64,000 nucleotides of DNA from positions 2,052-66,051 of the forward strand of contig CAZMGK010000001.1 of the NCBI GenBank assembly GCA_964565825.1, written 5' to 3'. Source of the DNA: an uncultured Candidatus Saccharibacteria bacterium. GTDB lineage: Bacteria > Patescibacteriota > Minisyncoccia > Phycocordibacterales > UBA9973. The first letter of the stretch is position 1; each line of letters begins with the position of its first letter. The notes beneath the pieces were generated by a model that was not told the DNA's origin, searched no databases, and saw nothing but the letters and a program-made list of their open reading frames with translations. The position numbers and the translations under genes are program-made. Shown here piece after piece: positions 1-64,000 of the stretch.

Positions 1-3000
1 GGTGGTGTCACTCGTAATATCATCAGTTGATGATGAACCACTGTCAGATCCTGCGTCCAGATTAGGCACACCCGGAGCTCCTGGTGCAGTTGTATCAACA
101 GTGACTGAGATACTCGGAGATGCGAGTGATTCATTTCCCGCGACATCGGTTGTGGTGATGGTGAGGGTATGTGCACCATCCGCGAGTGCTGATGAGGTAA
201 TACTGTAGAGGGCACCTGCACAGGTAAATGTTCCTACGTTCGTTGCTCCATCATAGAGTGTGATGAGTTCGCCTGTAGTACAAGAACCAGAGAGTGTTGG
301 TGTCGTATCCATAGTGATGTTGTCGGTCGTGATATTAGTATCAGATGCAGTATCCAAATCCGGTGCCGTTACTGGAGTACCAGGGAGTGTGGTGTCGATC
401 GTGACCGAAAGCGTGGTTCCGTCGGCACTCGCATTCCCAGCATTGTCTTCTTGATGAGCCAAGAAGACGTGGACACCATCGGCAAGCGCAGGAGATGCAG
501 TAAGTGTGACCGTACCTGCACTACAGTACCCTGTTGCATAGAGCGTGACACCCTCTTTGAGAACAACCAAATTGGTTCCCAAACACGATACCGTAAAGCT
601 CGGTGTTGTATCTTCAGTAATGTCATCAGTATTGGTTGTTCCTGTGTCTGATGCATTGGTCAGATCAGGCACACCAGGAGCTGATCCAGGAGCAGTGGTA
701 TCAATGGTGACAGAGAGTCCAGCTGATGTCGCTGAGACATTACCTGCGACATCGGTTTGACGTGCGGTCAGTGTGTACGCACCATCAGGCGTGAGTGCTG
801 TTGCGGTCAGTGTAATCGTTCCTCCACCTCCACAGACACCAGAGTCAAGCGTGATGGCACCGTTTCTGAGGTCAACGGTAGAACCAGCGACACAAGAAAT
901 CGTAAAGTCAGGGGTAGTGTCGGTGGTGATATTGTCGGTGGTTGATACTCCGGTACTGTCAGCAGTATCTGAACCTGCATCAAGATCAGGAGTAGAAGGT
1001 GCAGCATCTACTGTAGTGTCGATATCAATAACAACAAATCCAGAGAGTGGAGAGACATTTCCTGCTGGGTCTGTCTGTTTTGCAGTAATCGTGTATGTAC
1101 CATCTGGAGTGAGGGCTGTCGTAATAGTAATCGTTGAAGATGACCCAGCACAGACATCGGTGTAACCTGAAGCACTTCCATCTACCCAGAGTTCGACGGT
1201 AGATCCAGTCACACAAGAAATGGTGAAGGTTGGGGTGTCATCATTGGTTTCATTGTCGGTGGTGTTTCCTGTGTCAGAGGCGACATCAAGATCAGGAGTA
1301 CCTGGAGCAGCATCGGCTGTGGTATCGATGATGATGGCTTTGTTGGCGCCGAGGGATCCGGCAGCGCCTGGAGCTGCGAGTGTGAGTGTTGCATTGTTCG
1401 TCGCAACATCACGAATGGTTCCTCCGTTTAAGGCGAGAGAGTTTGTGGCGAAATAGTCGAGGTCACCACTTGCATCAGCTGCAACGACAGTGTAATTAAA
1501 GGTCAGTGTGTTTGTTCCAGTACCGGAACTGTAGGTTGCATCACGGTCAGTTACACCTGTTTCTAGAGTGAGGAGTGGAGAACCGGTGACGTTGACGACT
1601 TCAGAGAAGACGATTTGTATTGAAATGACCGCACCTGTGGTGTATTCCCCATTGGCAGTACTTGATGTCACACTCGTGACTGTTGGAGAGGTGGTGTCAA
1701 AGGTGTAGGTGTAGGTCGCTGAACTATCACTGTTACCTGATTGATCAGTTGCAGTGTACTCAAATGATCCAGATGAGCTGTTGTTGAACGTAACTGTACA
1801 GGTGAACTGTGTGTTACCGGTAGGAGTAAGTGCTGTACCTGAGGCGACACACGGTGATGTGTTGATGTTGCTTCCGGTGATGACAATATCGCCTGAAACC
1901 AATCCTGAGTTACTGTCGGTCACGGTGAAGACTGCCACGAGTGGGTCAGGACTATTGTAGGTACCGGTTGTTGGAGTGGGTACTCCAAGTGTTGGGTCGG
2001 TACTATCTATGTAAAAGTTTCCACTGTACTGAGTAGCACTGTTTCCAGCACGGTCGTCAACATCGACAGTCAGGGTTCCAGTAGCAGAGACGGTTCCACT
2101 ACAGAATATGGAGACTGATGCAGTGGGTAATGTTGCCACGGTTGGGAATGGATCATAACAGGTAAAGCTGTGAGTTGAGGTTCCTCCAAAGGTCACTGAG
2201 TCAATTCCATTGGCATCAGTGATAGTAAAGGTTGCATTGGTGATAGAGGCTGTTGAGAAGATGGTTGGAGTGGTTGGGGTAATGACTGGTACCACAGTTT
2301 CAATGATGTACGTTTGGGTGGCTTCTGCTCCAGGAATACTTCCTCCTGGGCCTCCACCATCTGGATCTCCTGAACCGTTGACGGTCAGTGTTCCACCAGG
2401 GGTAAGTATTCCATCATCGAGCGTACAGTCGGTGGTGGTTGGATTAGTTCCGACGGCAGGCACACAGGTAATAGCGGATGAGCCTCCTCCGTTGTAGACG
2501 GCTGTGACTGAGTCAATGTATCCAGGTGCGCCCATGAGGACATTGATCGTCGTGTCAGATATTGTTGTATTTGAAATGACCGTTGGTGCGGTGATGGTGA
2601 TGATTGGATAGAATTTGGCTGTCTGTTCACGGATGTTACCGGCTGTATCGTAGGCCCGGAGAATGACGGTATTGAGTGCAGAGGTTGATGCTCCAGTCAT
2701 CGCATACGGAGATGTTTGTGTCGCAAAGCCTCCACCGTTAACATTGAGTTCATAGTGATCAATCGCGATACCGTCGGTTGCTAAAAAGGTGATGGTTGGA
2801 TCAGTGAAATCAAGTGGTGTTGAAGTCAGAGGATCAATGGTGTAGACCGTGATGGTTGGAGCCAAACGGTCAATGATGTAGTTTGGAGAATTAAAGGTGA
2901 CTTGCTTCCCTACTTTGTCTGTTGTAGTGACAGAGATGACGTGGGTTTCTTCGGCATTGTTGGCAGTGGTGATATCGACTGTACAGGTAATAGTCGTATT

Positions 3001-6000
3001 GCCTGTGGTTGGGAGGACTGCTGGAGATGAACAATCAGGAGTCAGGACGCCGTCGATTGAGTCAGTGACTACTATGTATGTGTCAGCTTGGATACCTTGA
3101 CCGGTGGCATTGTCTGCAGTCGTGAAGGTAATAGTTTGAGGACTGGTAGTGGTTAGAAATGTTGCAGTGGTAAATGATCCTGTTGGGACTGTGTTGTCGA
3201 TGATAATAGTCAGTGCGCCACTATCTCCTGATTCATTTCCAGCGAGATCTACCTCACGGACCGTGAGGTTGTTGTGTGTCCCTTCAGACAGGGCTGATGT
3301 GGTACAAGACCAGGCACCAGCTCCGTCTGATGTTGTGGTACAGACAAGTGTTCCGTTATCGTAGACTTTGACTGTCTGTGTGGCACCGGCTCCCGTTCCA
3401 GAGAGTGTTGGTGTGGTGTCAGAAGTGAGATCATCAGTTGATGAGTATCCAGTGTCAGAACCTGCATCGAGGTTTGGGGTACCCGATGGAGCAGAAGGTG
3501 CTGTAGTATCGATGGTGACAGAAAGTGCACCGGATGCCACAGATACATTCCCGGCGACATCTGTTTGTTTCGCAGTGATACTGTAGGCAGCATCTGGAGT
3601 AAGTGCAGTTACGGTCAAGGTGACAGTACTTGCTGCACAGACACCGGTCACACCAGTAGCTACTCCACCGACGAAGAGTTCGACAGTAGATCCGGTGACA
3701 CACGAGAGATCAAAGGTTGGTGTACTATCATTGGTCACATCGTCGTTGGTGAATGTTCCATTGTCGGTTCCAGAGGTCATATCCGGTGCACCTGGAGCAG
3801 CGTCTGCTGTCGTGTCGATGATGATTGCTTTGTTGGCACCAAGAGATCCTGCAGCTCCAGGAGTTGGGAGAGTCAGGTCGGAGTCGATTGTTCCACCGTT
3901 TAAGGCCAGGGAACCTGTACCAGTGTAGTCGAGGTCGGAACTTGTCTCACCTGAGGCGACAGTGTATGTGAAGGTAAGTACTGTGGTACCAGTACCTGAA
4001 GTATAGTTGACGACTGCATCTGTTCCTCCTGTTTCCAGAGTCAGTTGTGGAGTACCGGTGACAGCGACTGGATTAGAGAAAGTAATTTGTATTGAAATGA
4101 CATCGCCTGCATTGTATGAGCCGTCGCCGGTTGATGAGGAGACGTCGGTGACGGTTGTATAGAGGAACCACCCAATAGCGGTACTACTCACGTCAATTGA
4201 GTTTGCTGGCAGAAGAGGAAGTGTGATACCAGAAGAACTATCAAGAGCAGTGTTGTCGGCGATAGAGAGATAATCTCCAGTGAAGGTTGATGCTCCAGTA
4301 AAGGTGATCGTCCGGACTGTCGGAGTATCAGCTGAGGTGATAGCAATGAGGTCATCGGCATCGAGACCATCAAGAACCAGTGAGTTAGCAATAGTGATAT
4401 TACCATTGTCAAAAACAAGTTGACTATTGGTACCATTGTTCGTTGATTCAACCTTAGAGAGTGTGTAGAAAGGAATGGTTGCTGTAGCATCGATGGTGAT
4501 TGCATTAGAGGTAATGGAGACCGTACCGTTGTTGTGTGTAAATGTACCTGCATTAGCAAATGTTGAACCAGAGACAGTGAGTGTCCCAGAGGTTGAAGTC
4601 ATTGCGCCTGAGGCACCAATTGAAAGTGATGGCGTAGACATACTCTGAGCCAATCCAGTGAATGCTCCATCGGTGACGGTCAGTGTATTTGCAACAACGA
4701 GACCACCTCCTAGTTGGAAGGTATCACTGTTACTAGCACTTGCATCATTGATGATGAGGTTGTAGTAGTCGGTGGCACCAAAGTCTTTGATGGTGTGAGT
4801 GGTGGCAGATCCGATTCCGTTACCGTAGTATTCCCAGGTTCCAGAGTTGACGTCGTTGGTGAGAGTGAGGGTGTTACTTCCTTGGAGGCGGACGGTACCG
4901 TCATTACTAAGTGTACCAGAGATAGTAGCATTAAAGCTTGAGAGATCAAGAGTTGAACCAGCATCTATGTCTACAATCGTACCGGTAATATTGAAGTCAT
5001 TGGTCACTACGGTCACCGTTGAATTATTTGTAATCGTAGGGCGGACAGTTCTTGCAACGGAACCAAAGTTCATGTCTTGGGCATCACCTCCGTTAAATGT
5101 TACGGTAAGTTCTGCAGTAAAAGTCATCGTTCCATCAATGATCGCATCTCCCCCAAAACTTGGAGAAAAATTCCCAAATGCTATCGTTCCTCCACTATTT
5201 ACTTGAAGATCTCCTGCATACGTCGATACTGCTCCAGGTGTGAAGGTAGCTCCAGTCATGACAATGAGTTCTTTTGTATCGTTGATGACCGTTGCACCAC
5301 CGGCATCTGGGTAAAGTGTGGTAAGGTCAGCATCTGCATTATTAGCTGTATTGAGTGTCGCAATAGTATGTGCACCACTTTCGAGGATCACTCTATCTTG
5401 GTAAATATCTGTAGTAATGTAGTTCGAAGAACCATTATGTCTAATGAGTGTTGCTCCATCTTCTGTTTCTCCGTCTATGTAGACAGTGACCACAGCAGAA
5501 GCAGTAGGGTTCACATATGACAGAGAGTATGCACCGGTACCACCTGAAGTGGTAGTACATGAGCTTGAGACTCCGTCAACGAGGAGACAGATGGATTTAC
5601 CGTTGGCGATTGGGGTGACTCCTTCGTCGGTGTAGACGCTTCCTGAGATGGTGGAGGCAGCAGCGTCGTAGATGGTGATGCGATGGTTACCAGATTGCGC
5701 AACAAAAAGACGACTGTTTGTAGAATCATACGCGAGATTTTTTGGAGTACTCATACGTGATTGGTTTGTAAGAGCACTAGTATTAGTGAAATTACTTTGC
5801 CCAAGGACATTGATAGCATTTTCTCCATCGGTGATAGTAGCCACATCGTACACAGTGACACGGTGGTTACCAGATTGGGCAACAAAAAGACGATTACCTG
5901 TTGAGTCATAGGCAAGACCTTGTGGACTGTTCATCCCAGCTTGAGTATCAGCCGAAGCAGAGTTTGTAAAATTAGTTTGACCAAGCACAAATGTTGCATT

Positions 6001-8055
6001 TTCTCCGTTAGTAATACCGGTGACATCATAGACTGTGACGCGATGATTGCCGTACTGCGAAACAAAGAGTCTGTTGCCTGTTGCGTCATAAGTAAGACCC
6101 TCTGGACCATTCATCCCAGATTGAGTGTTTCCGGCTCCAGTAGAAAAAAAACTTCCCTGACCAAGTACGAATGTTGCATTTTCTCCATCTGTAATAGCAG
6201 CAACGTCATATACTGTGACACGATGACTACCTGTTTGTCCGACAAAAAGACGATTACCTGTTGAGTCATAGGCAAGACCTGTTGGAGAATTCATTCCGCC
6301 TTGAGTATTAGCAGAGGCGGATGTCGTAAAGAGTGCTTGCCCAAGCACAAATGTTGCATTTTCTCCATCGGTGATAGTAGCCACATCGTACACAGTGACA
6401 CGGTGGTTACCAGATTGGGCAACAAAAAGACGATTACCTGTTGAGTCATAGGCAAGACCTTGTGGACTGTTCATCCCAGCTTGAGTATTTGCCGCTGTAT
6501 TAGACACAAAGTCAGTTTGCCCAAGAACATTATCAGGAACTCTATCAATGAGATTATCGCTCGCATCTAAGTTATACACAAATACTCGATGGTTAGCACT
6601 ATCTGAAACAAACAATCTATGATTAACACTATCTACTTCTTCGTCAACAGGAGTAGAAAAACCAAGTCTGTTCGCAGAATCATGTGACCCACTCTTTGTG
6701 TATGTTGGCACTGGCGCAGATAGATTTGTCCCATCGTACTGACCAAGTGCATCTACTGCATTTTCTCCGTCGGTGATAGTAGTCACATCATAGACAGTGA
6801 GACGACTATTACCATTACCTACTACAAAAAGACGACTATTACTGCTATCATAAGTTAGACCATATGGAGCATTCATCCCTGCTTGAGTGTTTGCCGCAGC
6901 AGTATTGGTGAAGTTACTTTGTCCAAGCACGAATGTTGCATTTTCTCCGTTAGTAATACCGGTGACATCATAGACTGTGACGCGATGATTGCCGTACTGC
7001 GAAACAAAGAGTCTGTTGCCTGTTGCGTCATAAGTAAGACCCTCTGGACCATTCATCCCAGATTGAGTGTTTCCGGCTCCAGTAGAAAAAAAACTTCCCT
7101 GACCAAGTACGAATGTTGCATTTTCTCCATCTGTAATAGCAGCAACGTCATATACTGTGACACGATGACTACCTGTTTGTCCGACAAAAAGACGATTACC
7201 TGTTGAGTCATAGGCAAGACCTGTTGGAGAATTCATTCCGCCTTGAGTATTAGCAGAGGCGGATGTCGTAAAGAGTGCTTGGCCGAGTACATTAATTGCT
7301 GGCTCTCCATCGGTAATTGCCGTGACATCATAGACGATGACGCGATTATTCAAAAAATCGGATACAAAGAGTCTATTATTTATAGAGTCATGCATAATAC
7401 CTCGTGGTGCGCTCATTCCTGATTGAGTGGTAGCAGATGCTGATGTCGTAAAGAGTGCTTGACCAAGGACGTTGATAGCCGGCTCTCCATCAGTGATAGC
7501 AGCGACATCGTAGACCGTGATACGATTGAGGTTTGCAACAAAAAGTCTATTACCTGTTGCGTCGTAAGCGAGACCATATGGAGCACTCATCCCTGCTTGA
7601 GTAACGGAACCACCATTGCTTATAAAGTCTGTTTGACCGAGCACGTTATCAGGAACTCTATCGATCAGGTTATTACTTCCATCTAAGTTATAGACGAGAA
7701 CACGGTTATTATTAACATCTGAAACAAACAATCGATGATTGACTGTATCCATAACTACTCCATACACCTGGTTGAATCCCAGTCTGTTCGGAGAGTCGTT
7801 TGACCCACTTTTTATTATATACCTTGGCACCGGCGCAGATAGATTTGTCCCATCGTACTGCCCCAACAGATCTATCGCATTCGCTCCATTGGAAATAGTT
7901 GCAAATGCAGGTGTTGGTAAAGCAAATGTAATGATGGTAAGTACAAGAATAAGATACGTTTTGTATGATTTCGTATGTGAAAAAATATTCTTTGTAAAAG
8001 ATAAAAAACTATCGACCAGTGTATTACCTTGTGTGTGTTTTGTGTATATAAACAT
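1..8055 (-). CDS. Giant secreted surface protein, partial (C-terminus lies beyond the window start). It has a Sec signal peptide, about 12 NHL-type beta-propeller repeats, then a long run of Ig-like domains (TDxAGNxS motif) and beta-helix-like repeat domains. More than 2680 aa lie in the window.
   Basis: My own reverse-complement translation from the ATG at 8053-8055 (preceded by an in-frame TAA) gives MFIYTKHTQGNTLVDSFLSFTKNIFSHTKSYKTYLILVLTIITFALPTPAFA, then repeated ...GNRLFV.Q.GNHRVTVYDV..ITDGE... (NHL) units. Translation near 3541-3660 gives VTALTPDAAYSITAKQTDVAGNVS in the same frame (low codon coordinate = 1 mod 3) as the start. None of the listed minus-strand ORFs occupies that frame, and all plus-strand ORFs in 1-8000 are short. 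The ORF track omits it because it runs off position 1. Confidence 0.8.
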   Translation of the reverse strand, partial: MFIYTKHTQGNTLVDSFLSFTKNIFSHTKSYKTYLILVLTIITFALPTPAFATISNGANAIDLLGQYDGTNLSAPVPRYIIKSGSNDSPNRLGFNQVYGVVMDTVNHRLFVSDVNNNRVLVYNLDGSNNLIDRVPDNVLGQTDFISNGGSVTQAGMSAPYGLAYDATGNRLFVANLNRITVYDVAAITDGEPAINVLGQALFTTSASATTQSGMSAPRGIMHDSINNRLFVSDFLNNRVIVYDVTAITDGEPAINVLGQALFTTSASANTQGGMNSPTGLAYDSTGNRLFVGQTGSHRVTVYDVAAITDGENATFVLGQGSFFSTGAGNTQSGMNGPEGLTYDATGNRLFVSQYGNHRVTVYDVTGITNGENATFVLGQSNFTNTAAANTQAGMNAPYGLTYDSSNSRLFVVGNGNSRLTVYDVTTITDGENAVDALGQYDGTNLSAPVPTYTKSGSHDSANRLGFSTPVDEEVDSVNHRLFVSDSANHRVFVYNLDASDNLIDRVPDNVLGQTDFVSNTAANTQAGMNSPQGLAYDSTGNRLFVAQSGNHRVTVYDVATITDGENATFVLGQALFTTSASANTQGGMNSPTGLAYDSTGNRLFVGQTGSHRVTVYDVAAITDGENATFVLGQGSFFSTGAGNTQSGMNGPEGLTYDATGNRLFVSQYGNHRVTVYDVTGITNGENATFVLGQTNFTNSASADTQAGMNSPQGLAYDSTGNRLFVAQSGNHRVTVYDVATITDGENAINVLGQSNFTNTSALTNQSRMSTPKNLAYDSTNSRLFVAQSGNHRITIYDAAASTISGSVYTDEGVTPIANGKSICLLVDGVSSSCTTTSGGTGAYSLSYVNPTASAVVTVYIDGETEDGATLIRHNGSSNYITTDIYQDRVILESGAHTIATLNTANNADADLTTLYPDAGGATVINDTKELIVMTGATFTPGAVSTYAGDLQVNSGGTIAFGNFSPSFGGDAIIDGTMTFTAELTVTFNGGDAQDMNFGSVARTVRPTITNNSTVTVVTNDFNITGTIVDIDAGSTLDLSSFNATISGTLSNDGTVRLQGSNTLTLTNDVNSGTWEYYGNGIGSATTHTIKDFGATDYYNLIINDASASNSDTFQLGGGLVVANTLTVTDGAFTGLAQSMSTPSLSIGASGAMTSTSGTLTVSGSTFANAGTFTHNNGTVSITSNAITIDATATIPFYTLSKVESTNNGTNSQLVFDNGNITIANSLVLDGLDADDLIAITSADTPTVRTITFTGASTFTGDYLSIADNTALDSSSGITLPLLPANSIDVSSTAIGWFLYTTVTDVSSSTGDGSYNAGDVISIQITFSNPVAVTGTPQLTLETGGTDAVVNYTSGTGTTVLTFTYTVASGETSSDLDYTGTGSLALNGGTIDSDLTLPTPGAAGSLGANKAIIIDTTADAAPGAPDMTSGTDNGTFTNDDVTNDSTPTFDLSCVTGSTVELFVGGVATGVTGVCAASTVTLTVTALTPDAAYSITAKQTDVAGNVSVASGALSVTIDTTAPSAPSGTPNLDAGSDTGYSSTDDLTSDTTPTLSGTGAGATQTVKVYDNGTLVCTTTSDGAGAWSCTTSALSEGTHNNLTVREVDLAGNESGDSGALTIIIDNTVPTGSFTTATFLTTTSPQTITFTTADNATGQGIQADTYIVVTDSIDGVLTPDCSSPAVLPTTGNTTITCTVDITTANNAEETHVISVTTTDKVGKQVTFNSPNYIIDRLAPTITVYTIDPLTSTPLDFTDPTITFLATDGIAIDHYELNVNGGGFATQTSPYAMTGASTSALNTVILRAYDTAGNIREQTAKFYPIITITAPTVISNTTISDTTINVLMGAPGYIDSVTAVYNGGGSSAITCVPAVGTNPTTTDCTLDDGILTPGGTLTVNGSGDPDGGGPGGSIPGAEATQTYIIETVVPVITPTTPTIFSTASITNATFTITDANGIDSVTFGGTSTHSFTCYDPFPTVATLPTASVSIFCSGTVSATGTLTVDVDDRAGNSATQYSGNFYIDSTDPTLGVPTPTTGTYNSPDPLVAVFTVTDSNSGLVSGDIVITGSNINTSPCVASGTALTPTGNTQFTCTVTFNNSSSGSFEYTATDQSGNSDSSATYTYTFDTTSPTVTSVTSSTANGEYTTGAVISIQIVFSEVVNVTGSPLLTLETGVTDRDATYSSGTGTNTLTFNYTVVAADASGDLDYFATNSLALNGGTIRDVATNNATLTLAAPGAAGSLGANKAIIIDTTADAAPGTPDLDVASDTGNTTDNETNDDTPTFTISCVTGSTVELWVDGSASGYTDVCAGSSSTITITTALTPDGTYTITAKQTDPAGNVSPLSGFVVIDIDTTVDAAPSTPDLDAGSDTADSTGVSTTDNITTDTTPDFTISCVAGSTVDLRNGAITLDSGVCGGGGTITLTATALTPDGAYTLTARQTDVAGNVSATSAGLSVTIDTTAPGSAPGVPDLTNASDTGTTNTDDITEDTTPSFTVSCLGTNLVVLKEGVTLYATGYCSAGTVTLTASPALADGVHVFLAHQEDNAGNASADGTTLSVTIDTTLPGTPVTAPDLDTASDTNITTDNITMDTTPTLSGSCTTGELITLYDGATNVGTFTCAGALYSITSSALADGAHTLTITTTDVAGNESLASPSISVTVDTTAPGAPGVPNLDAGSDSGSSSTDDITSDTT

Positions 8056-8107
8056 ACGTATATTTTATCATGGTACATGAGGTAAAATCTATTTCTGTCT
8101 AGTGTTT

Positions 8108-20199: not shown

Positions 20200-20520
20200 T
20201 TTTGCCTGCTTGAAAAAGCAGTCCTTTTTGGTTTTCTGTATTGTCATTCCGGACCCCGATCTGGAATCCAGTCTTTTTATAAAGACCCAATTCCTCATTA
20301 CTTTTTAACCGCCAAAAAGTAACCAAAAACGCTCTCGACCAGCACTTTTTTAATTACCCTAGGGCATCCTCTCTTGCTTCGCAATTCACCTTGACCCACG
20401 TAACTCGGACTCACTAAAAATACTAATCCCGACGTAAAGTCGGGACCCCGAACAAAGCTTCGGGGCTCGCTTCACTCAAACAGAGTATTTTTTCCTACGG
20501 AACGAAACCTCTCATTGGTT
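20200..20520. other. Hairpin-rich part of the ~600-nt region between the trmD stop and the rpoB start; candidate structured rpoB leader or unidentified small RNA.
   Basis: Local hairpins CTGCTT-gaaaaa-GCAG, ATTCCGGA-ccccga-TCTGGAAT, CCGAC-gtaaa-GTCGG and CCCCGAA-caaag-CTTCGGGG. No ORF and no convincing match to SRP, RNase P or tmRNA cores. Confidence 0.25.
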
Positions 20521-32545: not shown

Positions 32546-32990
32546 TTCATGATGTCACACGATAAGCCGAATTCTGTCCCCCGCACTCACTATACAAATT
32601 TAGAAACTAATATAGTGAGTGCGGGAGGATACACATTTATCTGGGATAGATATTACTATCTACCTCAAGCGATTCTTCCTCGATATTTCTATCTCAGACG
32701 CGATCTTGCACACAAGTACGGATTTAGCCGTTTCATTCTCTCCTTACAAAGAGATTATTCCTTACAATTACTTGTCGGGAACCCTAGCCTTTCGGCATTG
32801 GCGTCACTGTTCGCACCGCGCACTTACATACGATGGGCGTTACCCACTACTCTTGAGGGAGGCCTTGCCTCCCTCAGTGTGTTCGGACTTTCCTCCCCCA
32901 CACCTATATTTTTATTGCTGATGAATCAGCGTTTTATAGAAACAATAAAAACATGGGTGTGGGGGCGTGTATCTGTGCAACACAACCACT
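32545..32990 (-). ncRNA. rnpB: RNase P RNA (bacterial), with an unusually long AU-rich P3 closed by the CCCCCACACC/GGTGTGGGGG stem.
   Basis: Minus-strand RNA carries the P4 5' strand GGGAGGAAAGUCCGAAC (reverse complement of 32881-32897), the P8-like UGGGUAACGCCCA, and the P4 3' strand GACAGAAUUCGGCUUAUCG (reverse complement of 32559-32577), about 400 nt apart in the canonical order. P2 ACACG/CGUGU. The overlapping plus-strand ORFs 32549..33028 and 32619..32921 are spurious. Confidence 0.75.
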
Positions 32991-33698: not shown

Positions 33699-33865
33699 TT
33701 TTAAAGTTTTTTCTACTATAACCTATATAAAGATGTATGTCAAATTCCTCAGCTGAACAAGATGTTTTTGATACTACCAGTTTTTAAAATACTTGCCCCG
33801 ACATCTATGCGTATGTACCCATAAAAGGGTAATATAGCAGGACTTAAAGATACAGGTGGTAGGGC

Positions 33866-33893
33866 TTGACAAAATTTGTGTATTTGCTATAAT
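33866..33893 (+). promoter_or_regulatory. Consensus sigma-70 promoter (TTGACA-16nt-TATAAT) only 8 nt before the ATG; implies a leaderless or near-leaderless mRNA.
   Basis: TTGACA at 33866-33871, TATAAT at 33888-33893, ATG at 33902. Confidence 0.6.
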
Positions 33894-40582: not shown

Positions 40583-41413
40583 TTAAAAATCAAAATATAA
40601 TACCGATTTTACAGTCGCCGTGTATTCTGGAGTACATCCTTGGAAACACACGCTAGACTCAACTTCAACTGCATACCGATACGGCACATCCGTCACATCC
40701 GTGAATGATAGAAATCGAAAATATTCTGATGGTGCTGTTGTTCCTGAATAGAGCGAAGCGTCAAACGCAATCAAACCGTTCTCATTATACAACATTGGGT
40801 CCGTAGCATACGCAGCATATCCGATGGTTCCAGAACCAGAAAAAGGGTTGAAATAATAATCGCACTGATTCCCTGATCCGCACGCTGTATCAATAAGAGC
40901 CAGAAAATCACTTGCACTATCACCGTCGGCGACTGCTTCTTTTTGAACAAATTTTACAAACTCAACTCCCTCTTCGGCGAGATACTGGGCTGTTAACTTT
41001 CTTTTAGTCAGATGAATATCTTGCATAGAGCTCGTACTGACCTGTGACAAGGCGGTAAACGCAATCAAGAAAATAAACAATGCAACGAGTGTTTCGATGA
41101 GGGTAAACCCCGACACCAATTTCAGGTGATTGTTCGCACAAGTAGGTGTATATTTATTCTGAGAAAAATTAAGAAAACCAAAAACGTGTTTCTTACTAAT
41201 TGGTGTGGGGGTAAACCCCGACACCAATTTCAGGTGATTGTTCGCACAAGTAGGTGTATATTTATTCTGAGAAAAATTAAGAAAACCAAAAACGTGTTTC
41301 TTACTAATTGGTGTGGGGGTAAACCCGCCTACAAATCTCACTTTATTTTTAGTTTCCACGTGCATGTTACTTTTTTGTATATTTTTTTGTAGAAAACGAA
41401 TAAATGTATTCAT
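40583..41413 (-). CDS. Type IV pilin whose 5' end carries tandem 108-bp (36-aa) modules, each recreating the prepilin cleavage site (…LKLVSG|FTPTPISKKHVFGFLNFSQNKYTPTCANNH…) before the authentic VSG|FTLIETLVALF.
   Basis: Prepilin motif SGFTLIETLVALFIFLIAF. The upstream in-frame repeats come from the DNA repeats at 41096-41330. The true translation start is uncertain. Confidence 0.75.
   Translation of the reverse strand: MNTFIRFLQKNIQKSNMHVETKNKVRFVGGFTPTPISKKHVFGFLNFSQNKYTPTCANNHLKLVSGFTPTPISKKHVFGFLNFSQNKYTPTCANNHLKLVSGFTLIETLVALFIFLIAFTALSQVSTSSMQDIHLTKRKLTAQYLAEEGVEFVKFVQKEAVADGDSASDFLALIDTACGSGNQCDYYFNPFSGSGTIGYAAYATDPMLYNENGLIAFDASLYSGTTAPSEYFRFLSFTDVTDVPYRYAVEVESSVCFQGCTPEYTATVKSVLYFDF
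41096..41330 (-). repeat. 2.1 tandem copies of a 108-bp unit, each beginning with the palindrome GGTGTGGGGG-taaa-CCCCGACACC.
   Basis: GGGTAAACCCCGACACCAAT occurs at 41101 and 41209, with a partial copy at 41317. The units are identical. Confidence 0.85.
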
Positions 41414-41414
41414 A

Positions 41415-42125
41415 TTAATCTTTTGGGGTTCTTTGCATTACTGCTGTTTGAATACTAAAAGGTATTGTGGTGTCCTCAAATGCAATAGTCCCAGCAAGGC
41501 GTATGGTGACCAAGGGTGGTTCTCGATCGGCTGACTCTGCATAGATAACAGAAAATCCTGAATTTGCTGGAATAATTGTTATGGGGCTTGGAGTTAAGCG
41601 ATTGTAATTAGCAACACTTAGAGTTGTAATATCAGGTCCAAGTGTTTTAAAGACTGACCATACACTTGTATCTGGATCTTCTGCAATCACATAGCCAACT
41701 TGGTCATCCGTGACCCCATCTTGACCCGCAACCCCCTCGAATGCCAGAGAAAGACTTGCCTGCACATCTGTCCCCGTAGTACCATCAACACAAGACTTTG
41801 GCTCTTCGATGATTGAGTTTGAATAATCACCACCTACATCACATCTAATATGTCTTCCGACACGGATATTCCTAACCATATCTTCCATAATAGCACTGAG
41901 TGTATCAAACTGTTCTTTTTGAAATTGAGTTATTTTGTATGCTCGATGCATCATCAACAGAGATGATATACCCAAAGATACAATGATCAAAAAAATAGAA
42001 CTTGAAACAAGGAGTTCTATTAAGGTAAACCCTTTTTGAGATTGTCTTTTTTTGTAATAAGAATATGGTGTCATCATGTGAAGTATGTATATAGTATAGG
42101 GTACTTTTTCTCTTTTTACTAACAA
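41415..42125 (-). CDS. Type IV pilin/pseudopilin
   Basis: KG|FTLIELLVSSSIFLIIV prepilin motif. Confidence 0.75.
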   Translation of the reverse strand: MLVKREKVPYTIYILHMMTPYSYYKKRQSQKGFTLIELLVSSSIFLIIVSLGISSLLMMHRAYKITQFQKEQFDTLSAIMEDMVRNIRVGRHIRCDVGGDYSNSIIEEPKSCVDGTTGTDVQASLSLAFEGVAGQDGVTDDQVGYVIAEDPDTSVWSVFKTLGPDITTLSVANYNRLTPSPITIIPANSGFSVIYAESADREPPLVTIRLAGTIAFEDTTIPFSIQTAVMQRTPKD

Positions 42126-42131
42126 AAGAGC

Positions 42132-42866
42132 CTACTGAGATTTCTTGATACTTAAAATACCGACCGGATTGATATTGATAGTATTTTTACCGGGTGAACC
42201 TGGTAAAATAAAAACAAGATCTACGTTACTGGTGACAGGTAAAATAGTATTTGGATTAATAGCATTTACAGACCATTCTGGATCATAGTCTTGGCGCATG
42301 CGTGCGTCCGGGTATGGACGCTTGAAAACAGTAGAGAAAGTTTCTAGATCAGCAGTGTTACATGAATCGTTCGATGGCTCATATCCTCCTTCACATATTT
42401 TATGGAGACGAATATCCTCAAAAAACATTTCTTGCATACATTCGTAGTAGTATGAATTACCACAATCAAGAACTATCCCCCCGGGGTTAATAGCAATCAG
42501 GTCATCATTAAAATTATCATAAAAAATACTCATTTTCTCAGGTGTATTTACATCGAAATATATTCCGTAGGCGGGTTTCCATGCTGGAAGTGGGTATTCT
42601 TTTAACCCTGGATCAATATCGGGTAATTTTCCCGCCAACGCATTGTGCTGTTGTTCTTTGATAAGAAGTGCGACCTCCTGGACTGCAACAGTAAAATCAG
42701 TATTGTTTTTAAATGCGTCAAAGTTAAAAAGCACAATACCAGCCATCATACTAAAAATAGATATCACCACAATCATTTCCATTACCGTAAAACCAGCTTG
42801 CTGTGTAGGTGCAATCACAACATGTTCTCGTGACTTTGACCTATTTTTTTTAAAAAATGCAAACAT
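42132..42866 (-). CDS. Type IV pilin-like protein (minor pilin/pseudopilin)
   Basis: AG|FTVMEMIVVISIF N-terminal methylation-type segment. Confidence 0.65.
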   Translation of the reverse strand: MFAFFKKNRSKSREHVVIAPTQQAGFTVMEMIVVISIFSMMAGIVLFNFDAFKNNTDFTVAVQEVALLIKEQQHNALAGKLPDIDPGLKEYPLPAWKPAYGIYFDVNTPEKMSIFYDNFNDDLIAINPGGIVLDCGNSYYYECMQEMFFEDIRLHKICEGGYEPSNDSCNTADLETFSTVFKRPYPDARMRQDYDPEWSVNAINPNTILPVTSNVDLVFILPGSPGKNTININPVGILSIKKSQ

Positions 42867-42869
42867 ATA

Positions 42870-43679
42870 TTAAAAATGAGTTGTTAGTATTTGAGTAATA
42901 GTGATGGAGAACAGAAATACAAAAAATATCGCGGTACACATGAACGGTCCAAATGGAACATGGCTTTTAAGCGTCGTCTTTTTGCGCAACAGTAACATAC
43001 CAATACCCCAAAGACCACCGATCCAAAAAGACACGAGAACTGCTGCGAAACCACCCGTGATACCAAGCAACCACCCCATTCCAAGAGCAAGCTTTACATC
43101 ACCAAAACCCATCGCTTTTCCACCGGTGACCCACCACAAGAAAAAGAAAGGCAGTGCAATAAGTGGTCCAGCAAGTACTGACCACAAAGATGGGAGGTGG
43201 ATAGCATAGCTCATACCCGTAAATATGAAAAGAGAAAGAAAAGCCAAAATATTAAACAGCCAAACAAATGTGTCTGGAATAATATTGTGATGATAATCGT
43301 ACACAGAAATAACAATCAAGATACAAAAAATGTAGGTAAAAAATATAAGCGGGAAAAAAGACATCCAACTAAAAGAGTACATAAGGGTGGTATCTGGGAG
43401 AAATTTAATAAAGAGAGAAACAAATACAAAACCAGTGATTGCTTCAACAAGTGGATACTGCCACGAAATTTTTGAAGCACAGCCTTTGCACTTACCCCTC
43501 TGACTCAAGAAGCTCGCAATCGGTACGAGCTCGTGCCAAGAAAGTGTCCGACGGCAGGTAAAACAAAAAGAACGTCCGCCAAGACCACGCCCTGTATTGA
43601 ATCTATAAATGACCACATTCAAAAATGAACCGATGACTGTCCCGAGTAAAAAAACAAAAATTCCGTAGATTTCAAACAT
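42870..43679 (-). CDS. pilD: Prepilin peptidase (A24 family, PilD/TadV-like)
   Basis: Polytopic membrane protein with an N-terminal CxxC...CxxC zinc motif (CFTCRRTLS...CKGCASKIS) and conserved A24 blocks. Confidence 0.85.
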   Translation of the reverse strand: MFEIYGIFVFLLGTVIGSFLNVVIYRFNTGRGLGGRSFCFTCRRTLSWHELVPIASFLSQRGKCKGCASKISWQYPLVEAITGFVFVSLFIKFLPDTTLMYSFSWMSFFPLIFFTYIFCILIVISVYDYHHNIIPDTFVWLFNILAFLSLFIFTGMSYAIHLPSLWSVLAGPLIALPFFFLWWVTGGKAMGFGDVKLALGMGWLLGITGGFAAVLVSFWIGGLWGIGMLLLRKKTTLKSHVPFGPFMCTAIFFVFLFSITITQILTTHF

Positions 43680-43751
43680 GCTTTTAGTATACCTAGAAAT
43701 AGGTAAAGGGTAAAGGATTTGACTGTGTATACAAACACAGACACACTCTTT

Positions 43752-44432
43752 TTAAGGATTACATTCTGTTTCTTGTTGTTGCAGATGATACGTTGTGCTT
43801 TGCCCAGAAAAACCAGTCGAATCGATACAAAAAGCAATATTAAAGTCTGTTTTTAATGGAGAAGAAACACCCCAGAGCGTTCCCGTAGGATGATTGTCAT
43901 GGCACACGGATAAAAGTCGATACCCAGCTGTTTCATAATCTGTTGAATACCATGGAAATGGATTATTGGAAAGTCTCGCTGCTTCTGCCAAAAAAGCTTC
44001 AACTTCAACACTATCGCACATATAGCTGTAGCTATTATTTTCTTGGTAATAAATATATGATTGTTTTTTAATTCCATCAAGAGCGGCTTTGATGGCTGCG
44101 TCACGTGCCCTATCTCGAGCATTCGTTAAACGAGGAATAATAATACCTGCAAGAATACCAATAATTGCAATCACAATGAGGAGCTCGATGAGGGTAAACC
44201 CCGACACCAATCGCAACAGACGCTGACGCCCTTTTTTGGTATGATGAGTCATCAGACGAGTAAGAAAACCGAATGGGTTATTTTTTAGGATTGGTGTGGG
44301 GGTAAACCCCGACATCAATCGCAACAGACGCTGACGCCCTTTTTTGGTATGATGAGTCATCAGACGAGTAAGAAAACCGAATGGGTTATTTTTTAGGATT
44401 GGTGTGGGGGTAAACCCCGACACCAATTTCAT
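43752..44432 (-). CDS. Type IV pilin with tandem 36-aa N-terminal modules (MKLVSG|FTPTPILKNNPFGFLTRLMTHHTKKGRQRLLRL x2) before the authentic VSG|FTLIELLIVIAIIG. The ORF track extends it to 44639; the ATG at 44432 (MKLVSG) is the more likely start.
   Basis: Prepilin motif SGFTLIELLIVIAIIGILAG. The modules are homologous to those of 40583..41413 and have the same 108-bp period. Confidence 0.75.
   Translation of the reverse strand: MKLVSGFTPTPILKNNPFGFLTRLMTHHTKKGRQRLLRLMSGFTPTPILKNNPFGFLTRLMTHHTKKGRQRLLRLVSGFTLIELLIVIAIIGILAGIIIPRLTNARDRARDAAIKAALDGIKKQSYIYYQENNSYSYMCDSVEVEAFLAEAARLSNNPFPWYSTDYETAGYRLLSVCHDNHPTGTLWGVSSPLKTDFNIAFCIDSTGFSGQSTTYHLQQQETECNP
44187..44432 (-). repeat. Three copies, at a 108-bp period, of GGGTAAACCCCGACACCAAT... 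carrying the GGTGTGGGGG-taaa-CCCCGACACC palindrome.
   Basis: Copies begin at 44192, 44300 and 44408. Units are near-identical (one has ACATC for ACACC). Confidence 0.85.
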
Positions 44433-44576
44433 ATACTTTTTTTTAAGGAGAGCACTTTTTTGTTTCAAAAAATGTTTTTTTGTACTAAAAACTTTTTGTT
44501 TTTTCTTTTTTAATCTTTTAACAATACTTCTATCTTTGTTAAAAATTTTGGTGTTTGAATTTGTATGTGGGGTTTT

Positions 44577-44611
44577 TGTTGGGGGAGGCCTACGGCCTCC
44601 GCCAACAAACA
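44577..44611. promoter_or_regulatory. Imperfect 16-nt-arm palindrome TTTGTTGGGGGAGGCC-tac-GGCCTCCGCCAACAAA in the divergent pilin/RNase II-R region; candidate operator.
   Basis: Single C/G mismatch in the G/C run, the same kind of mismatch as in the GGTGTGGGGG/CCCCGACACC palindrome. Confidence 0.35.
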
Positions 44612-44722
44612 CCCCCAAAAACACTACCGAAAAACACATACCAAGAGCACCCTCTTTATGCTACACTATAGTCGTGATTAAACCTCAAAAAACAGAAGCC
44701 GAAATACTCGAACGTCGAGAAT

Positions 44723-63903: not shown

Positions 63904-63913
63904 CACAGAGTAT

Positions 63914-63989
63914 ACCCCGACACCCATATTTTTACAATTTGTTTAAAGTAGTAGGATATTTGTAATAAAAACATATAGGTGTGGGGGTA
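63914..63989. repeat. GC-clamp hairpin element CCCCGACACC-CATATTTTTA...AATAAAAACAT-GGTGTGGGGG upstream of murD; paralogous to the rnpB P3 hairpin and to the pilin-associated palindrome.
   Basis: Shared termini CACC(C/T)ATATTTTTA and AATAAAAACAT..GGTGTGGGGG with 32895-32965. Confidence 0.5.
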
Positions 63990-64000
63990 TATCATAAAAA

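Follow-up and report, generated by a model that had tools for sequence, protein, structure and literature searches.

Hairpin copies in the window

The window, by which we mean the whole stretch of 64,000 nucleotides that was analysed, contains a divergent RNase P RNA gene, two pilin genes that both adjoin pilD, and murD; copies of a short hairpin element lie within or beside each of them (Table 1). The 10-mer CCCCSACACC has 12 exact matches in the window on both strands, compared with 0.03 expected, and none of 100 shuffles reached 12. These matches group into five loci holding eight element copies, one of them decayed and absent from the original prediction. The original prediction had proposed a dispersed family of small palindromic repeats; the conserved ends, and a count within the window far above chance, bear this out. 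Inverted pairs of the 10-mer were found where they had been described, in helix P3 of RNase P RNA (32895/32956, 71 bp) and upstream of murD (63915/63978, 73 bp), and the inner flanks common to these two copies read as claimed.

Table 1. Element copies in the window and the RNase P RNA gene that hosts one of them (E, element)
Feature	Position	Strand	Remarks
RNase P RNA gene (type A), divergent; host gene	32547-32990	-	Rfam RF00010; 5' end approximate
Element copy, perfect clamps, 71 bp	32895-32965	-	Forms helix P3 of RNase P RNA
Decayed copy with flanks	33792-33868	.	Copy 33796-33864, CCCCGACATCTAT...ATACAGGTGGTAGGG
Two identical 104-bp copies (41108-41211, 41216-41319)	41104-41323	-	Array TAAA-E-TAAA-E-TAAA
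Two 104-bp copies (44199-44302, 44307-44410; 98% identical) and truncated third right end	44195-44432	-	In frame
murD copy (63915-63987, 73 bp) with TATA flanks	63911-63991	-	TATA both sides

The same arms enclose the four 104-bp units of the pilin genes; the left arm of the unit at 44307-44410 is CCCCGACATC, with one mismatch. Tandem period is 108 bp, with 2.1 copies at 100% identity in one array and 2.2 copies at 98% in the other, copy numbers that derive from a short-read assembly; a Logan unitig reached via PilD (L001, 2.9 kb) breaks within both arrays. A tight palindrome had been described at the head of every 108-bp module. Junctions of right arm, TAAA and left arm do occur at 41202-41225, 44293-44316 and 44401-44424, but 41310-41319 is a right arm only.

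Five of the six complete window copies read CCCCGACACC...GGTGTGGGGG on the plus strand, carrying the single C/G asymmetry that had been noted in most copies, and the rnpB copy is perfect. Over all fetched loci the asymmetry appears in 15 of 193 copies, 5 of those 15 being in the window; it is a minor lineage variant. The asymmetry had also been reported in a palindrome at 44577-44611 (here mapped to 44570-44615). One G/G mismatch is indeed present there, but the polarity is opposite (GGGG...CCCC), and for that reason we treat this palindrome as unrelated to the element.

Searching the window with Rfam gave no family for the hairpin at the gathering threshold, and chance miRNA-like matches only at an E-value threshold. 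The window ORFs, which are housekeeping or unknown, include no transposase or recombinase. The genome encodes RNase III. At the loci of the window itself we recovered neither an excision footprint nor an empty site in the same strain.

Copies at rnpB, at 33796 and at murD

The rnpB assignment combines a match to RF00010 below the gathering threshold (54.4 bits, E 9e-16) with the P4 motif GAGGAAAGUCC immediately 3' of the hairpin; on the minus strand GAGGAAAGUCCG (P4) directly follows the copy. A P2 pairing, GAUACAC/GUGUAUC, was read from the sequence. Both the sequence and the cmscan alignment place the hairpin between the 5' strand of P2 and the GAGGAAAGUCC strand of P4, as P3. Folded as RNA, the copy gives a Y-shaped hairpin of -34 kcal/mol (z = -7.2). 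Its flanks are TCCT and CGTG, with no 4-nt direct repeat. A copy in a Paceibacterota MAG (L110) shares 83.6% identity with it over 73 bp, and the L110 flanks have no similarity.

The decayed copy is bracketed by CTTG at 33792-33795 and 33865-33868, and the right-hand CTTG is overlapped by a perfect TTGACA-16-TATAAT promoter (33866-33893) for the ORF at 33902. It folds weakly (z = -1.6), in keeping with its decay. The murD copy (fold z = -3.1) lies upstream of the gene, 12 nt from the start codon (ATG 63902, minus strand). Its TATA flank belongs to TATACT, a -10-like hexamer, and a -35-like TTGTAA (9/12 match) lies inside the copy. We rejected orthology of this copy with the one in L020, where the downstream gene is not murD.

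Among the roles that had been suggested for the hairpins, one in RNA structure is upheld by the copy forming P3, while one in termination is not. Neither terminator-like sites nor T-runs were found at the murD, 33796 and pilin copies, and we rejected an intrinsic terminator role because no T-run follows the GC-rich hairpins there.

Arrays in the pilin genes

In the pilin gene at 40583-41413 the copies are in frame between the G|FT and LIE codons, and the Pfam N_methyl match is found only at residues 101-122, past the second module. The ancestral reading of this pilin would be ...RFVGG|FTLIETLVAL. The second array, TAAA-E-TAAA-E-TAAA-(E), lies in the pilin gene at 43752-44432, where N_methyl matches at residues 145-167. 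Over 17 nt, the truncated right end of its third copy (44415-44432) matches the terminus of the pilin-1-type and L118-type element without a difference; it now provides ATGAAATTGGTGTCGGGG, encoding MKLVSG, and with it the present start codon of pilin 2.

Among the best 120 homologues of pilin 2, four had a module precisely at G|FT (19, 24, 36 or 2x36 aa long), and the others had none. A related pilin from the same sample (L118) contains one 104-bp copy in a clean duplication, CAAGGA-TTTA-[E]-TTTA-CCCTTATCGAG, and the insertion in L119 resembles it. The 108-bp "pilin module" is the element itself, in frame at the G|FT codons, and not a pilin feature. Since its codons, GGN-TTT-ACC, contain the preferred target sequence G|TTTA|C (see below), the prepilin cleavage site is a hot spot. 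The modules would merely lengthen the leader, which prepilin peptidase would cut off at the last G|FTLIE.

Distribution and structure of the family

Family members have the termini CCCCCACACC-W-AT ... AT-W-GGTGTGGGGG and form hairpins of 62-125 bp, none with its own ORF. The family is not peculiar to this genome: among the matches listed, over 116 stretches of GTDB species-representative MAGs have the identical termini. Hosts among these matches span Patescibacteria/CPR classes, Planctomycetota/Phycisphaerae, Omnitrophota, Nitrospinota and others, though for some co-assembled MAGs the NCBI label may mislead. The element-bearing sequences include long-read contigs and one closed chromosome of 886 kb.

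Terminal inverted repeats (TIRs) of 13 bp are present, and both 10-bp arms are perfect in 178 of 193 copies. The interior, which we call the cargo, ranges from ~3 to 100 nt. Arm pairing reaches 95% at position 11 (A-T 123, T-A 60). At position 14 it stands at 84% and all four pair types occur, and by about position 21 it has decayed; this pairing and covariation along the arms place the hairpin under selection. For a 68-nt subfamily only the outer 22-bp stem was supported, because MAFFT misaligned the inner hairpins. Tandem arrays with one shared 4-mer were also found in L042, L078, L053 and L010, and decayed copies with intact flanking repeats in L023 and L087 as well as at 33796 in the window.

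Neither the element nor a junction of its abutted ends matched any of 2.9 million viral contigs, and plasmids in PLSDB gave chance matches only; we rejected a phage or plasmid origin on these grounds. A role as DNA-uptake sequence was also rejected, in view of the cargo, the repeats at the flanks and the identity across phyla. Our literature search found no paper with these termini in a relevant context, and no description of MITEs in CPR or of nested tRNA genes in bacteria.

Target sites

Identical 4-bp flanks bracket 51 of 127 copies (40%), compared with 8.1 (6%) in shuffles (maximum 18 in 1000 shuffles). The four bases outward of the element are constrained, with T/C at position 1 in 91% and A/G at position 4 in 89%, and composition is random beyond. 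These flanking 4-mers are of the form YWWR (TAAA, TTTA, CAAG, CTTG, TATA and others), and the target symmetrised over 52 clean copies is G(52%)|YWWR|C(52%).

Because ~60% of copies lack identical flanks, a simple target-site duplication model is incomplete. Certain unequal pairs recur: TTCA/TAAA nine times, TACA/TAAA six times, and CTTG/TGAA in all the copies with tRNA cargo in D loops. In a uvrA gene the inserted unit is TGCG+E (108 nt) before the native TAAA, and the left TGCG differs from TAAA at three of four positions in a gene that is intact. Copies with tRNA cargo have the native 4-mer at the 5' side and a foreign one at the 3' side. The UvrA copy and the tRNA copies in D, T and anticodon loops fit an IS200/IS605-like pattern, with insertion 3' of a tetranucleotide and no duplication. 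However, 40% of all copies look like duplications, a look that could equally mean that target and element tetranucleotides coincide. We take the non-identical flanks to point to non-duplicative insertion of the IS200/REP kind.

Insertions in protein and RNA genes

The UvrA copy is a 36-aa insert between VGG and KSI that is missing from structure 2r6f. Stop-free in-frame copies also occur in PriA-like, hydrogenase-like and glycosyltransferase genes. For 14 of 20 stop-free read-through copies in ORFs the unit length (E+4) is divisible by 3, as it is for every copy sitting in an identified conserved gene; this implies that the copies are translated, not spliced. Stable RNA genes (rnpB, rRNA, tRNA) host at least 10 of the 127 copies. 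Copies in P3 of RNase P RNA were found in three genomes, L043 among them; the rnpB gene of L099 has two copies, and rRNA gene copies lie in 16S V1 (L041) and in 23S (L029).

Comparison with known systems

Rickettsia palindromic elements (RPEs; Ogata et al. 2000, 2002) are short palindromic repeats inserted in frame in Rickettsia genes, according to the summary in PMC10969869. As summarised there, RPEs share with the hairpin family the short palindromic form, the want of an own ORF and of a known transposase, and stop-free, in-frame presence in unrelated housekeeping proteins and in stable RNA genes, tolerated as peptide or helix. RPEs are known only from Rickettsia and relatives, whereas the 13-bp ends of the hairpin family are identical across phyla, its hosts being CPR, Planctomycetota, Omnitrophota and others; it is also flanked by a defined 4-nt sequence, has G|YWWR|C as its target and varies in its interior, which can include whole tRNA genes. 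Its termini are presumably unrelated to the RPE consensus sequences.

Bacterial MITEs (Correia/CREE of Neisseria, ERIC, RUP, Nezha, Chunjie) are alike in size, TIRs, short flanking direct repeat and non-autonomy, and also in promoter-side insertion, possible hybrid promoters and tandem or nested copies. Unlike them, the hairpin family has no known parent IS, and identical flanks are confined to 40% of its copies; the element folds back as a whole, with covariation beyond the conserved ends, and its distribution crosses phyla.

The hairpins had been likened to REP/BIME elements. Shared with REP/BIME/REPIN sequences are the hairpin repeat, a conserved tetranucleotide by the stem, an occasional single mismatch that makes the strands differ, and strand-specific, non-duplicative insertion as the likely mode. 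REPs are species-specific, extragenic and 20-40 nt long, begin with a GTAG-like tetranucleotide and flank a RAYT gene (Y1 HUH). Here, by contrast, the ends (CCCCCACACC) are alike in many phyla, the flank is YWWR and not of the GTAG type, many copies are intragenic (in pilin, UvrA, PriA-like, rnpB, rRNA and tRNA genes), and no ORF with a RAYT or Y1 signature was found in the fetched loci or the window. We therefore do not class the family with REP/BIME, although the analogy may hold for mechanism, in a hairpin-recognising, strand-specific insertion beside a tetranucleotide.

The hairpin family may resemble IS200/IS605 elements and PATEs in inserting 3' of a target tetranucleotide without duplication and with an own tetranucleotide at the right end. 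Dependence on DNA hairpins and on single-stranded targets, here loops of tRNA, rnpB and rRNA genes, would be a further likeness to IS200/IS605. These, however, have two separate subterminal hairpins and no TIR, whereas the ends of the hairpin family pair with each other, and no TnpA of the Y1 type was found in the fetched loci. Intervening sequences of 23S and 16S rRNA are likewise stem-loops of ~100 nt, sporadic in rRNA helix tips, but they are rRNA-specific and defined by RNase III excision; the hairpin family is genome-wide.

Probable nature of the element and its presumed mobilization

We consider the hairpins probably to be copies of a non-autonomous mobile foldback element, MITE- or RPE-like, moved in trans. 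The grounds are observed ones: family membership, termini, flanking repeats, target consensus, presence or absence in homologues, and insertions in frame and in RNA genes. Mobility in trans, neutrality and the enzymology we infer. The invariant 13-bp termini would pair, closing a hairpin around variable cargo, and insertion would occur at the short palindromic target G|YWWR|C, leaving the copy ends bracketed by a 4-mer. Repeated insertion at the 4-mer of a resident copy would build tandem arrays such as those of both pilin genes. Since no transposase lies in the element or was seen nearby, it must move in trans. Copies would persist where a hairpin or extra peptide is tolerated: at the tips of helices in stable RNAs (in the window, P3 of RNase P RNA), directly upstream of promoter hexamers preserved by the repeated 4-mer (the 33866 promoter and murD), and in proteins, in frame and stop-free.

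We sought the mobilizing enzyme among the fetched loci. No autonomous element with these ends was found in ~1.2 Mb of fetched loci, in plasmids or in viral contigs, and a regular-expression search for the Y1/HUH signature over 1.2 Mb of loci was negative. No transposase was seen between or beside the copies in L107, L054 and L023; in L107 two inverted copies enclose 2.8 kb whose ORFs, judged by eye, do not look like transposases, and the L054 copy sits in a ribosomal-protein operon. Unpaired or relaxed half-sites were considered as ends of an autonomous element and rejected, being decayed copies or clamp-only mini-palindromes. We favour, tentatively and at somewhat short of even odds, hairpin-recognising, strand-specific insertion 3' of a tetranucleotide by an element with its own 3' tetranucleotide (IS200/IS605- or REP/RAYT-like), and rank a DDE enzyme second. 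The DDE alternative, in which the family is a classical MITE, a deletion derivative of a DDE IS (e.g., IS1380/piggyBac-, IS5- or IS701-like) moving by cut-and-paste with a true 4-bp staggered duplication and with unequal flanks due to later mutation or rearrangement, we regard as possible but rather doubtful. It accords with the TIRs, a length below 130 bp without ORF, the 4-bp direct repeat in 40% of copies against 6% in shuffles, and a palindromic target typical of dimeric DDE enzymes; a 13-bp TIR that begins with CCC, beside a 4-bp T..A repeat, may recall piggyBac/IS1380. It sits poorly with the systematic recurrence of the same unequal flank pairs (TTCA/TAAA, TACA/TAAA, CTTG/TGAA), with TGCG beside a native TAAA that differs at three of four positions in an intact uvrA, with the lack of a full-length element bearing these TIRs in 1.2 Mb of loci, and with covarying pairing past the conserved 13-mer, a feature superfluous in a protein-binding TIR. 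For a MITE, the perfect conservation of 13 bp from phylum to phylum is also unusual, and a conserved host factor could be the reason instead.

Such conservation, and the strong stability of the hairpins, one of which is the functional helix P3 in a host that encodes RNase III, might suggest structures selected by the host (RNase III stems, terminators or attenuators, protein binding sites) that are not mobile and are alike by convergent or conserved function; cargo tRNAs, moreover, would need release from the clamp helix. We find this improbable, given presence and absence in homologous pilins with a clean 4-nt repeat marking insertion, copies translated within conserved protein cores such as UvrA, decayed copies, the want of T-runs, terminator-like sites or an Rfam family, and heterogeneous contexts that obey a target-site consensus and not a pattern of gene function. 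Removal at the RNA level, as an intron or ribosomal intervening sequence, would make insertions harmless in essential RNAs and ORFs; the enrichment of stable RNA genes as hosts and the long closing helix, which resembles rRNA intervening sequences, invite this idea, and those sequences are cut out by RNase III. It is nevertheless very improbable, since divisibility of E+4 by 3 implies translation, and deletion of copies from T and anticodon loops does not always restore canonical loops; we know of no bacterial splicing system for such a motif. Extremely unlikely is an invertible switch or shufflon for pilin genes, with the 108-bp modules as alternative promoter or leader cassettes. In two pilin genes beside pilD, inverted repeats at the 5' end do enclose a start codon with a leader (MTHHTKKGRQRLLRLVSG), with a truncated third copy providing one start codon, and the murD copy contains a -35-like hexamer; but the same element lies in rnpB, rRNA, UvrA and intergenic DNA, where inversion is meaningless, the arrays are direct tandem copies, the window has no recombinase gene, and at none of the sites did a copy appear in both orientations. 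Chance or assembly artefact we practically dismiss. All hosts are MAGs and the tandem 108-bp repeats break a Logan unitig, but the excess of matches, the same structure across independent studies, different assemblers, long-read contigs and a closed chromosome, and the coherent maintenance of reading frames and target sites all argue otherwise.

Genomes of CPR/Patescibacteria are small and regarded as poor in mobile elements. The mobile element that we propose would have spread with identical ends over many CPR classes and unrelated phyla, reshaping essential genes (RNase P RNA, rRNA, tRNA, UvrA) and altering the signal-peptide end of type IV pilins, on which CPR episymbionts depend. It would explain annotation oddities in MAGs such as over-long pilin leaders, sub-threshold rnpB or tRNA genes and assembly breaks, would serve as a marker for horizontal transfer among uncultured lineages, and points to a putative hairpin-specific recombination activity.

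Members with tRNA cargo

Some family members carry a complete tRNA and are placed inside cognate tRNA genes, sometimes nested. Such copies appear to lie co-oriented within a resident tRNA gene of the same anticodon, in its D, anticodon or T loop, and may re-insert into their own cargo to give Russian-doll nests. Like tRNA-targeting integrative elements, they disrupt a tRNA gene yet supply a working copy; they differ in being ~100 bp, in having no integrase, in supplying the whole tRNA and not its 3' part, and in the loops that they enter. Possibly, though we put it forward with reservation, the family is a previously undescribed class of "self-compensating" mobile cassette that carries a complete tRNA gene to replace the cognate tRNA it destroys. 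This would imply either that single-stranded loops of tRNA, rnpB and rRNA genes are strongly preferred and only self-rescuing insertions survive, or that the cargo guides targeting. In CPR and other uncultured bacteria, tRNA genes, and possibly pilin leaders too, would in either case be replaced horizontally, and the tRNA-in-tRNA copies, if confirmed, would represent a new way for selfish DNA to become indispensable. Removing E and one 4-mer from copies in T and anticodon loops did not always yield canonical loops. One further copy (L075) lies in the acceptor stem of a tRNA-Ala gene with a clean CCCG repeat, and there the element's terminal GGG rebuilds the 5' end.

Copies of the element in the window

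A dispersed family of GC-clamped, REP/BIME-like hairpins had been predicted from recurring inverted pairs of the 10-mer CCCCSACACC. The pattern is real: the window has 12 matches, both strands counted, where dinucleotide-preserving shuffles predict 0.03, and the inverted pairs span 71 bp in rnpB (the RNase P RNA gene) and 73 bp upstream of murD, with common inner flanks as described. Four 104-bp units form two 108-bp tandem repeats. With one mismatch allowed, 44307 came up as a variant arm, and 33796 and 23904 as half-sites; a decayed fifth copy had been overlooked in the original prediction. Every window copy is predicted to fold into a clamp-closed hairpin. The C/G difference between arms is present in the window, but is a minority form in the family (15 of 193 copies from all fetched loci); both 10-bp arms are perfect in 178 of the 193, tRNA-cargo copies included. 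The prediction is partly right: the repeats are a palindromic family, but one that is mobile, spans phyla and also enters genes.

At ~39% G+C, the window has housekeeping genes as in small Patescibacteria/CPR genomes (rpoBC, sigma-70, dnaG, secDF, ligA, mur genes, RNase III) and also encodes a pilin/pilD cluster. The right-hand CTTG of the decayed copy overlaps a perfect TTGACA-16-TATAAT promoter, and the TATA flank of the murD-side copy is part of a TATACT hexamer; the latter copy contains a -35-like TTGTAA. TATA-flanked copies ending GGGGG-TATACT were noted at three places. Each therefore abuts a -10-like hexamer, whose gene appears to have a short leader or none.

Coordinates of element copies and other features in the window and in loci fetched from other genomes and metagenomes (L-numbers)
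Feature	Location	Host or flank	Remark
Element copy	window 32895-32965	RNA strand of rnpB	directly 5' of GAGGAAAGUCCG (P4), 3' of P2 strand GAUACAC
Decayed element copy	window 33796-33864	CTTG on both sides	
Element copy	window 63915-63987	TATA on both sides	12 nt from end to murD ATG
108-bp tandem repeat	window 41101-41326	pilin 1	100% identical
108-bp tandem repeat	window 44192-44427	pilin 2	98% identical
In-frame copy	L045 4333-4436	UvrA	
In-frame copy	L012 6223-6302	PriA-like	
In-frame copies	L012 4717-4817; L089 2470-2552; L100 1007-1068; L014 3176-3282		
tRNA-cargo loci	L002 804-906; L114 6257-6357; L010 6110-6330; L106 2636-2749; L120-L176 (e.g. L143, L124, L160)		
Copies ending GGGGG-TATACT	window 63909-63937 (minus); L020 2390-2410; L087 803-835	TATA	ATG 6-7 nt on
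Clamp-only mini-palindromes	L010 3959-3987; L017 5182-5209; L100 4234-4262		13-bp arms 3-4 nt apart
62-bp copies, opposite orientation	L107 223-284; 3056-3117		bracket 2.8 kb
RNase P RNA genes	L010 1717-2330; L043 2464-3078		~615 nt
16S-23S spacer	L029 225-6540		~6.3 kb
Second rnpB hairpin	window 32578-32626 (minus)	rnpB	
46-nt hairpin	window 44570-44615	between pilin 2 and RNase R-like gene	
57-bp stretch	window 20298-20354; L087 2095-2151	upstream of rpoB (window)	93% identical
Open-ended ORF	window 1-8064 (minus)		at least 2688 codons
180/360-bp tandem repeats	window 5789-6529	open-ended ORF	70-77% identical

Spread and structure of the family

One genome per GTDB species was scanned for the 13-bp ends placed 31–91 nt apart, and these were found in at least 116 stretches. 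The matches listed are all MAGs; among them, CPR hosts are Saccharibacteria, Paceibacterota, Moran-, Uhr-, Nomura-, Doudna-, Berkel- and other classes, non-CPR hosts are Phycisphaerae and other Planctomycetota, Omnitrophota and Nitrospinota, and further hosts are labelled Bdellovibrionales or Gammaproteobacteria. Some of the matches lie on long-read contigs, and one closed chromosome (886 kb) is also among them. The window rnpB copy is 83.6% identical to one in a Paceibacterota MAG, whose surrounding DNA has no similarity to the window. Neither the element nor its abutted-ends junction had a match in 2.9 million viral contigs or a significant match in PLSDB plasmids, and Rfam has no family for the element.

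Element length is bimodal, ~62–88 and 96–117 bp. Pairing with covariation extends past the conserved ends: position 11 is paired in 95% of copies (A-T 123, T-A 60) and position 14 in 84%, with all four pair types, before pairing fades by about position 21. A ~68-nt subfamily common to Saccharibacteria, Nomurabacteria and Paceibacterota has an outer stem of 22 bp with two small hairpins inside it. Clamp-only mini-palindromes, one of them directly 3' of a sigma-factor gene stop codon, may be empty elements or remnants left after loss of the cargo between the clamps.

Evidence for insertion

Several observations mark the element as inserted DNA. Identical 4-bp flanks border 51 of 127 copies, where shuffles gave 8.1 and never more than 18; the constraint is limited to the first four outward bases, reading YNWR, and 52 rebuilt targets gave the symmetric consensus G/YWWR/C. 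Decayed copies with intact flanking repeats record the loss of ends over time. A UvrA gene has a 36-residue insert between VGG and KSI, with no counterpart in Geobacillus UvrA (2r6f) and absent from solved UvrA structures. Other stop-free in-frame copies lie in PriA-like, hydrogenase-like, glycosyltransferase and further ORFs; in the three reading frames the element ends read PPHQ..WCGG, PHTN..IGVGV and TPTPI..LVWG. The inverted pair at L107 brackets two ORFs, by eye one PQQ-/beta-propeller-like and one nucleotidyltransferase-like, and could be a composite unit.

Both window arrays lie within type IV pilin genes adjoining a prepilin peptidase gene. On the coding strand the unit is 36 codons without a stop, placed exactly between G/FT and LIE, so that pilin 1 reads ...RFVGG/FT[PTPISKK...KLVSGFT]x2 LIETLVAL and pilin 2 reads MKLVSG/FT[PTPILKN...RLVSGFT]x2 LIELLIV; the Pfam N-methylation motif matches both at the last G/FTLIE only. 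With a DNA layout of TAAA-E-TAAA-E-TAAA (E, element), each array amounts to two insertions of a 104-bp element at the same 4-mer. Pilin 2 now takes its start and leader (ATGAAATTGGTGTCGGGG) from the right end of a truncated third copy. Only one other public assembly of window 41297-44237 was noted, L001, a Logan unitig (SRR12762287) that breaks off within both arrays, so array copy number in the window rests on the window's own assembly.

Nearest pilin homologues were labelled by source Patescibacteria, Nomurabacteria, Kaiserbacteria and Minisyncoccia. Four of the best 120 pilin 2 homologues have a module at G/FT, of 19, 24, 36 or 2x36 residues, and the rest read M..KG/FTLIELL without one. L118 (from the same sequencing run as L001) has a single 104-bp copy of the pilin-1 subfamily with a clean repeat, CAAGGA-TTTA-E-TTTA-CCCTTATCGAG, and its restored empty site reads MKKNISQG/FTLIE; the L119 pilin has a decayed version of this type of insertion. 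A Paceibacterota MAG (L078) and a planctomycete (L097) also have copies in genes resembling pilins. Pilins are an insertion hot spot because the codons GGN TTT ACC contain the preferred target G/TTTA/C.

Insertions in stable RNA genes

Placed between the P2 strand and P4, the window rnpB copy therefore makes up helix P3 of an RNase P RNA that is of type A but divergent. This gene matched RF00010 at 54 bits (E 9e-16), below the gathering threshold, probably because of the P3 element and a second long near-perfect hairpin (CCCGCACTCACTATA...TATAGTGAGTGCGGG) at the P19 position, between the P2 3' strand and ACAGAAUUCGGCUUA. RNA genes are favoured hosts: they are ~1% of such genomes, yet hold at least 10 of 127 copies. 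Using cmscan we confirmed an element at P3 of another RNase P RNA (L043), two copies in the L099 rnpB, one in place of the 16S helix 6 tip (L041) and one ~220 nt into 23S (L029). In a tRNA-Ala acceptor stem (L075) the copy has a clean CCCG repeat, and its terminal GGG rebuilds the tRNA 5' end. The L029 16S-23S spacer has a further copy. The length of the L010 and L043 RNase P RNA genes, against a 367-position model, suggests further insertions.

tRNA-carrying relatives

Five GTDB copies enclose a complete tRNA within the clamps. Scanning metagenomes for clamp plus T-arm gave 57 further stretches, and 59 cargo tRNAs were called in total. Insertion points are in the D, anticodon or T loop of a host tRNA gene. 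When the element and its 3' 4-mer were deleted and the flanks joined, ARAGORN recognised a host tRNA in 27 cases. Seventeen of these had the cargo's anticodon (Arg ccg/cct/tct, Val tac/cac, Leu tag, Pro cgg, Met cat, Lys ctt, Gly ccc); in six more, Met cargo lay within a tRNA-like gene cut in the anticodon loop and called as SeC(tca). Cargo and host were co-oriented in all 27, the sole orientation scored, and were 61–97% identical. In 19 of 59 cases the flanks resembled the cargo more closely than a strict control did at its 99th percentile. Nested layers occur in L143 and L010/L133, with successive 5' halves to the left and successive 3' halves to the right. These cases are most simply read as a strong bias towards tRNA gene loops, in which only those insertions survive that supply a functional tRNA of the same kind through read-through expression; alternatively, the cargo may guide targeting to cognate tRNA genes.

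Possible mechanisms of insertion

No transposase was found near copies in the window, L107, L054 or L023, and the element is without coding capacity, so we consider it non-autonomous. A Y1 signature scan of the loci also gave no match. Two mechanisms can be proposed from the sequences. A DDE enzyme cutting with a 4-bp stagger would account for the palindromic target and for the perfect repeats at 40% of copies. However, unequal flank pairs are systematic (TTCA/TAAA, TACA/TAAA, CTTG/TGAA), the unit inserted in UvrA is TGCG+E, before a native TAAA, and in tRNA-cargo copies it is the 5' 4-mer that completes a canonical D loop (AGCTTG/GTA), T loop (TTCR/ATT) or anticodon loop (TTCA/GGA), whereas the 3' 4-mer is foreign (TGAA, CAAG, CGAG); we regard this mechanism as possible but rather doubtful.

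IS200/IS605 elements insert 3' of a tetranucleotide and carry a tetranucleotide of their own, and REP/RAYT elements probably do likewise. By analogy, we tentatively favour over DDE a single-strand, hairpin-recognising insertion 3' of a tetranucleotide, at a likelihood somewhat short of even, because of the unequal flanks, the UvrA unit, the native 5' and foreign 3' 4-mers and the fitting hairpin features. The covarying foldback, the occasional mismatch that distinguishes the strands and the preference for loops in genes that are highly structured and highly transcribed would all suit such a mechanism. Tandem arrays with one common 4-mer would follow, since a resident copy offers a new target in its right-end tetranucleotide.

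Comparison with known systems and other window features

Closest in behaviour are Rickettsia palindromic elements and bacterial MITEs (review PMC10969869); closest in likely mechanism are REP/RAYT and IS200/IS605 derivatives. The family falls outside all four by their defining features. No description of it came up in literature searches on the termini, on MITEs in CPR and on tRNA genes reported as nested or disrupted in these phyla. If any part of the system turns out to be new in kind, it could be the tRNA-in-tRNA cassettes.

A 46-nt hairpin in the divergent region upstream of pilin 2 (GGGTTTTTGTTGGGGGAGGCC-TAC-GGCCTCCGCCAACAAACACCCC; -34.7 kcal/mol, z = -6.1, one G/G mismatch) is separate from the element, has the opposite polarity and was not found elsewhere. 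The 57-bp stretch upstream of rpoB is shared with a Saccharibacteria MAG that otherwise has no DNA similarity to the window; neither a tRNA nor an Rfam family was called in the stretch, which may be a conserved leader or small RNA. The open-ended ORF with tandem repeats probably encodes a giant surface protein.
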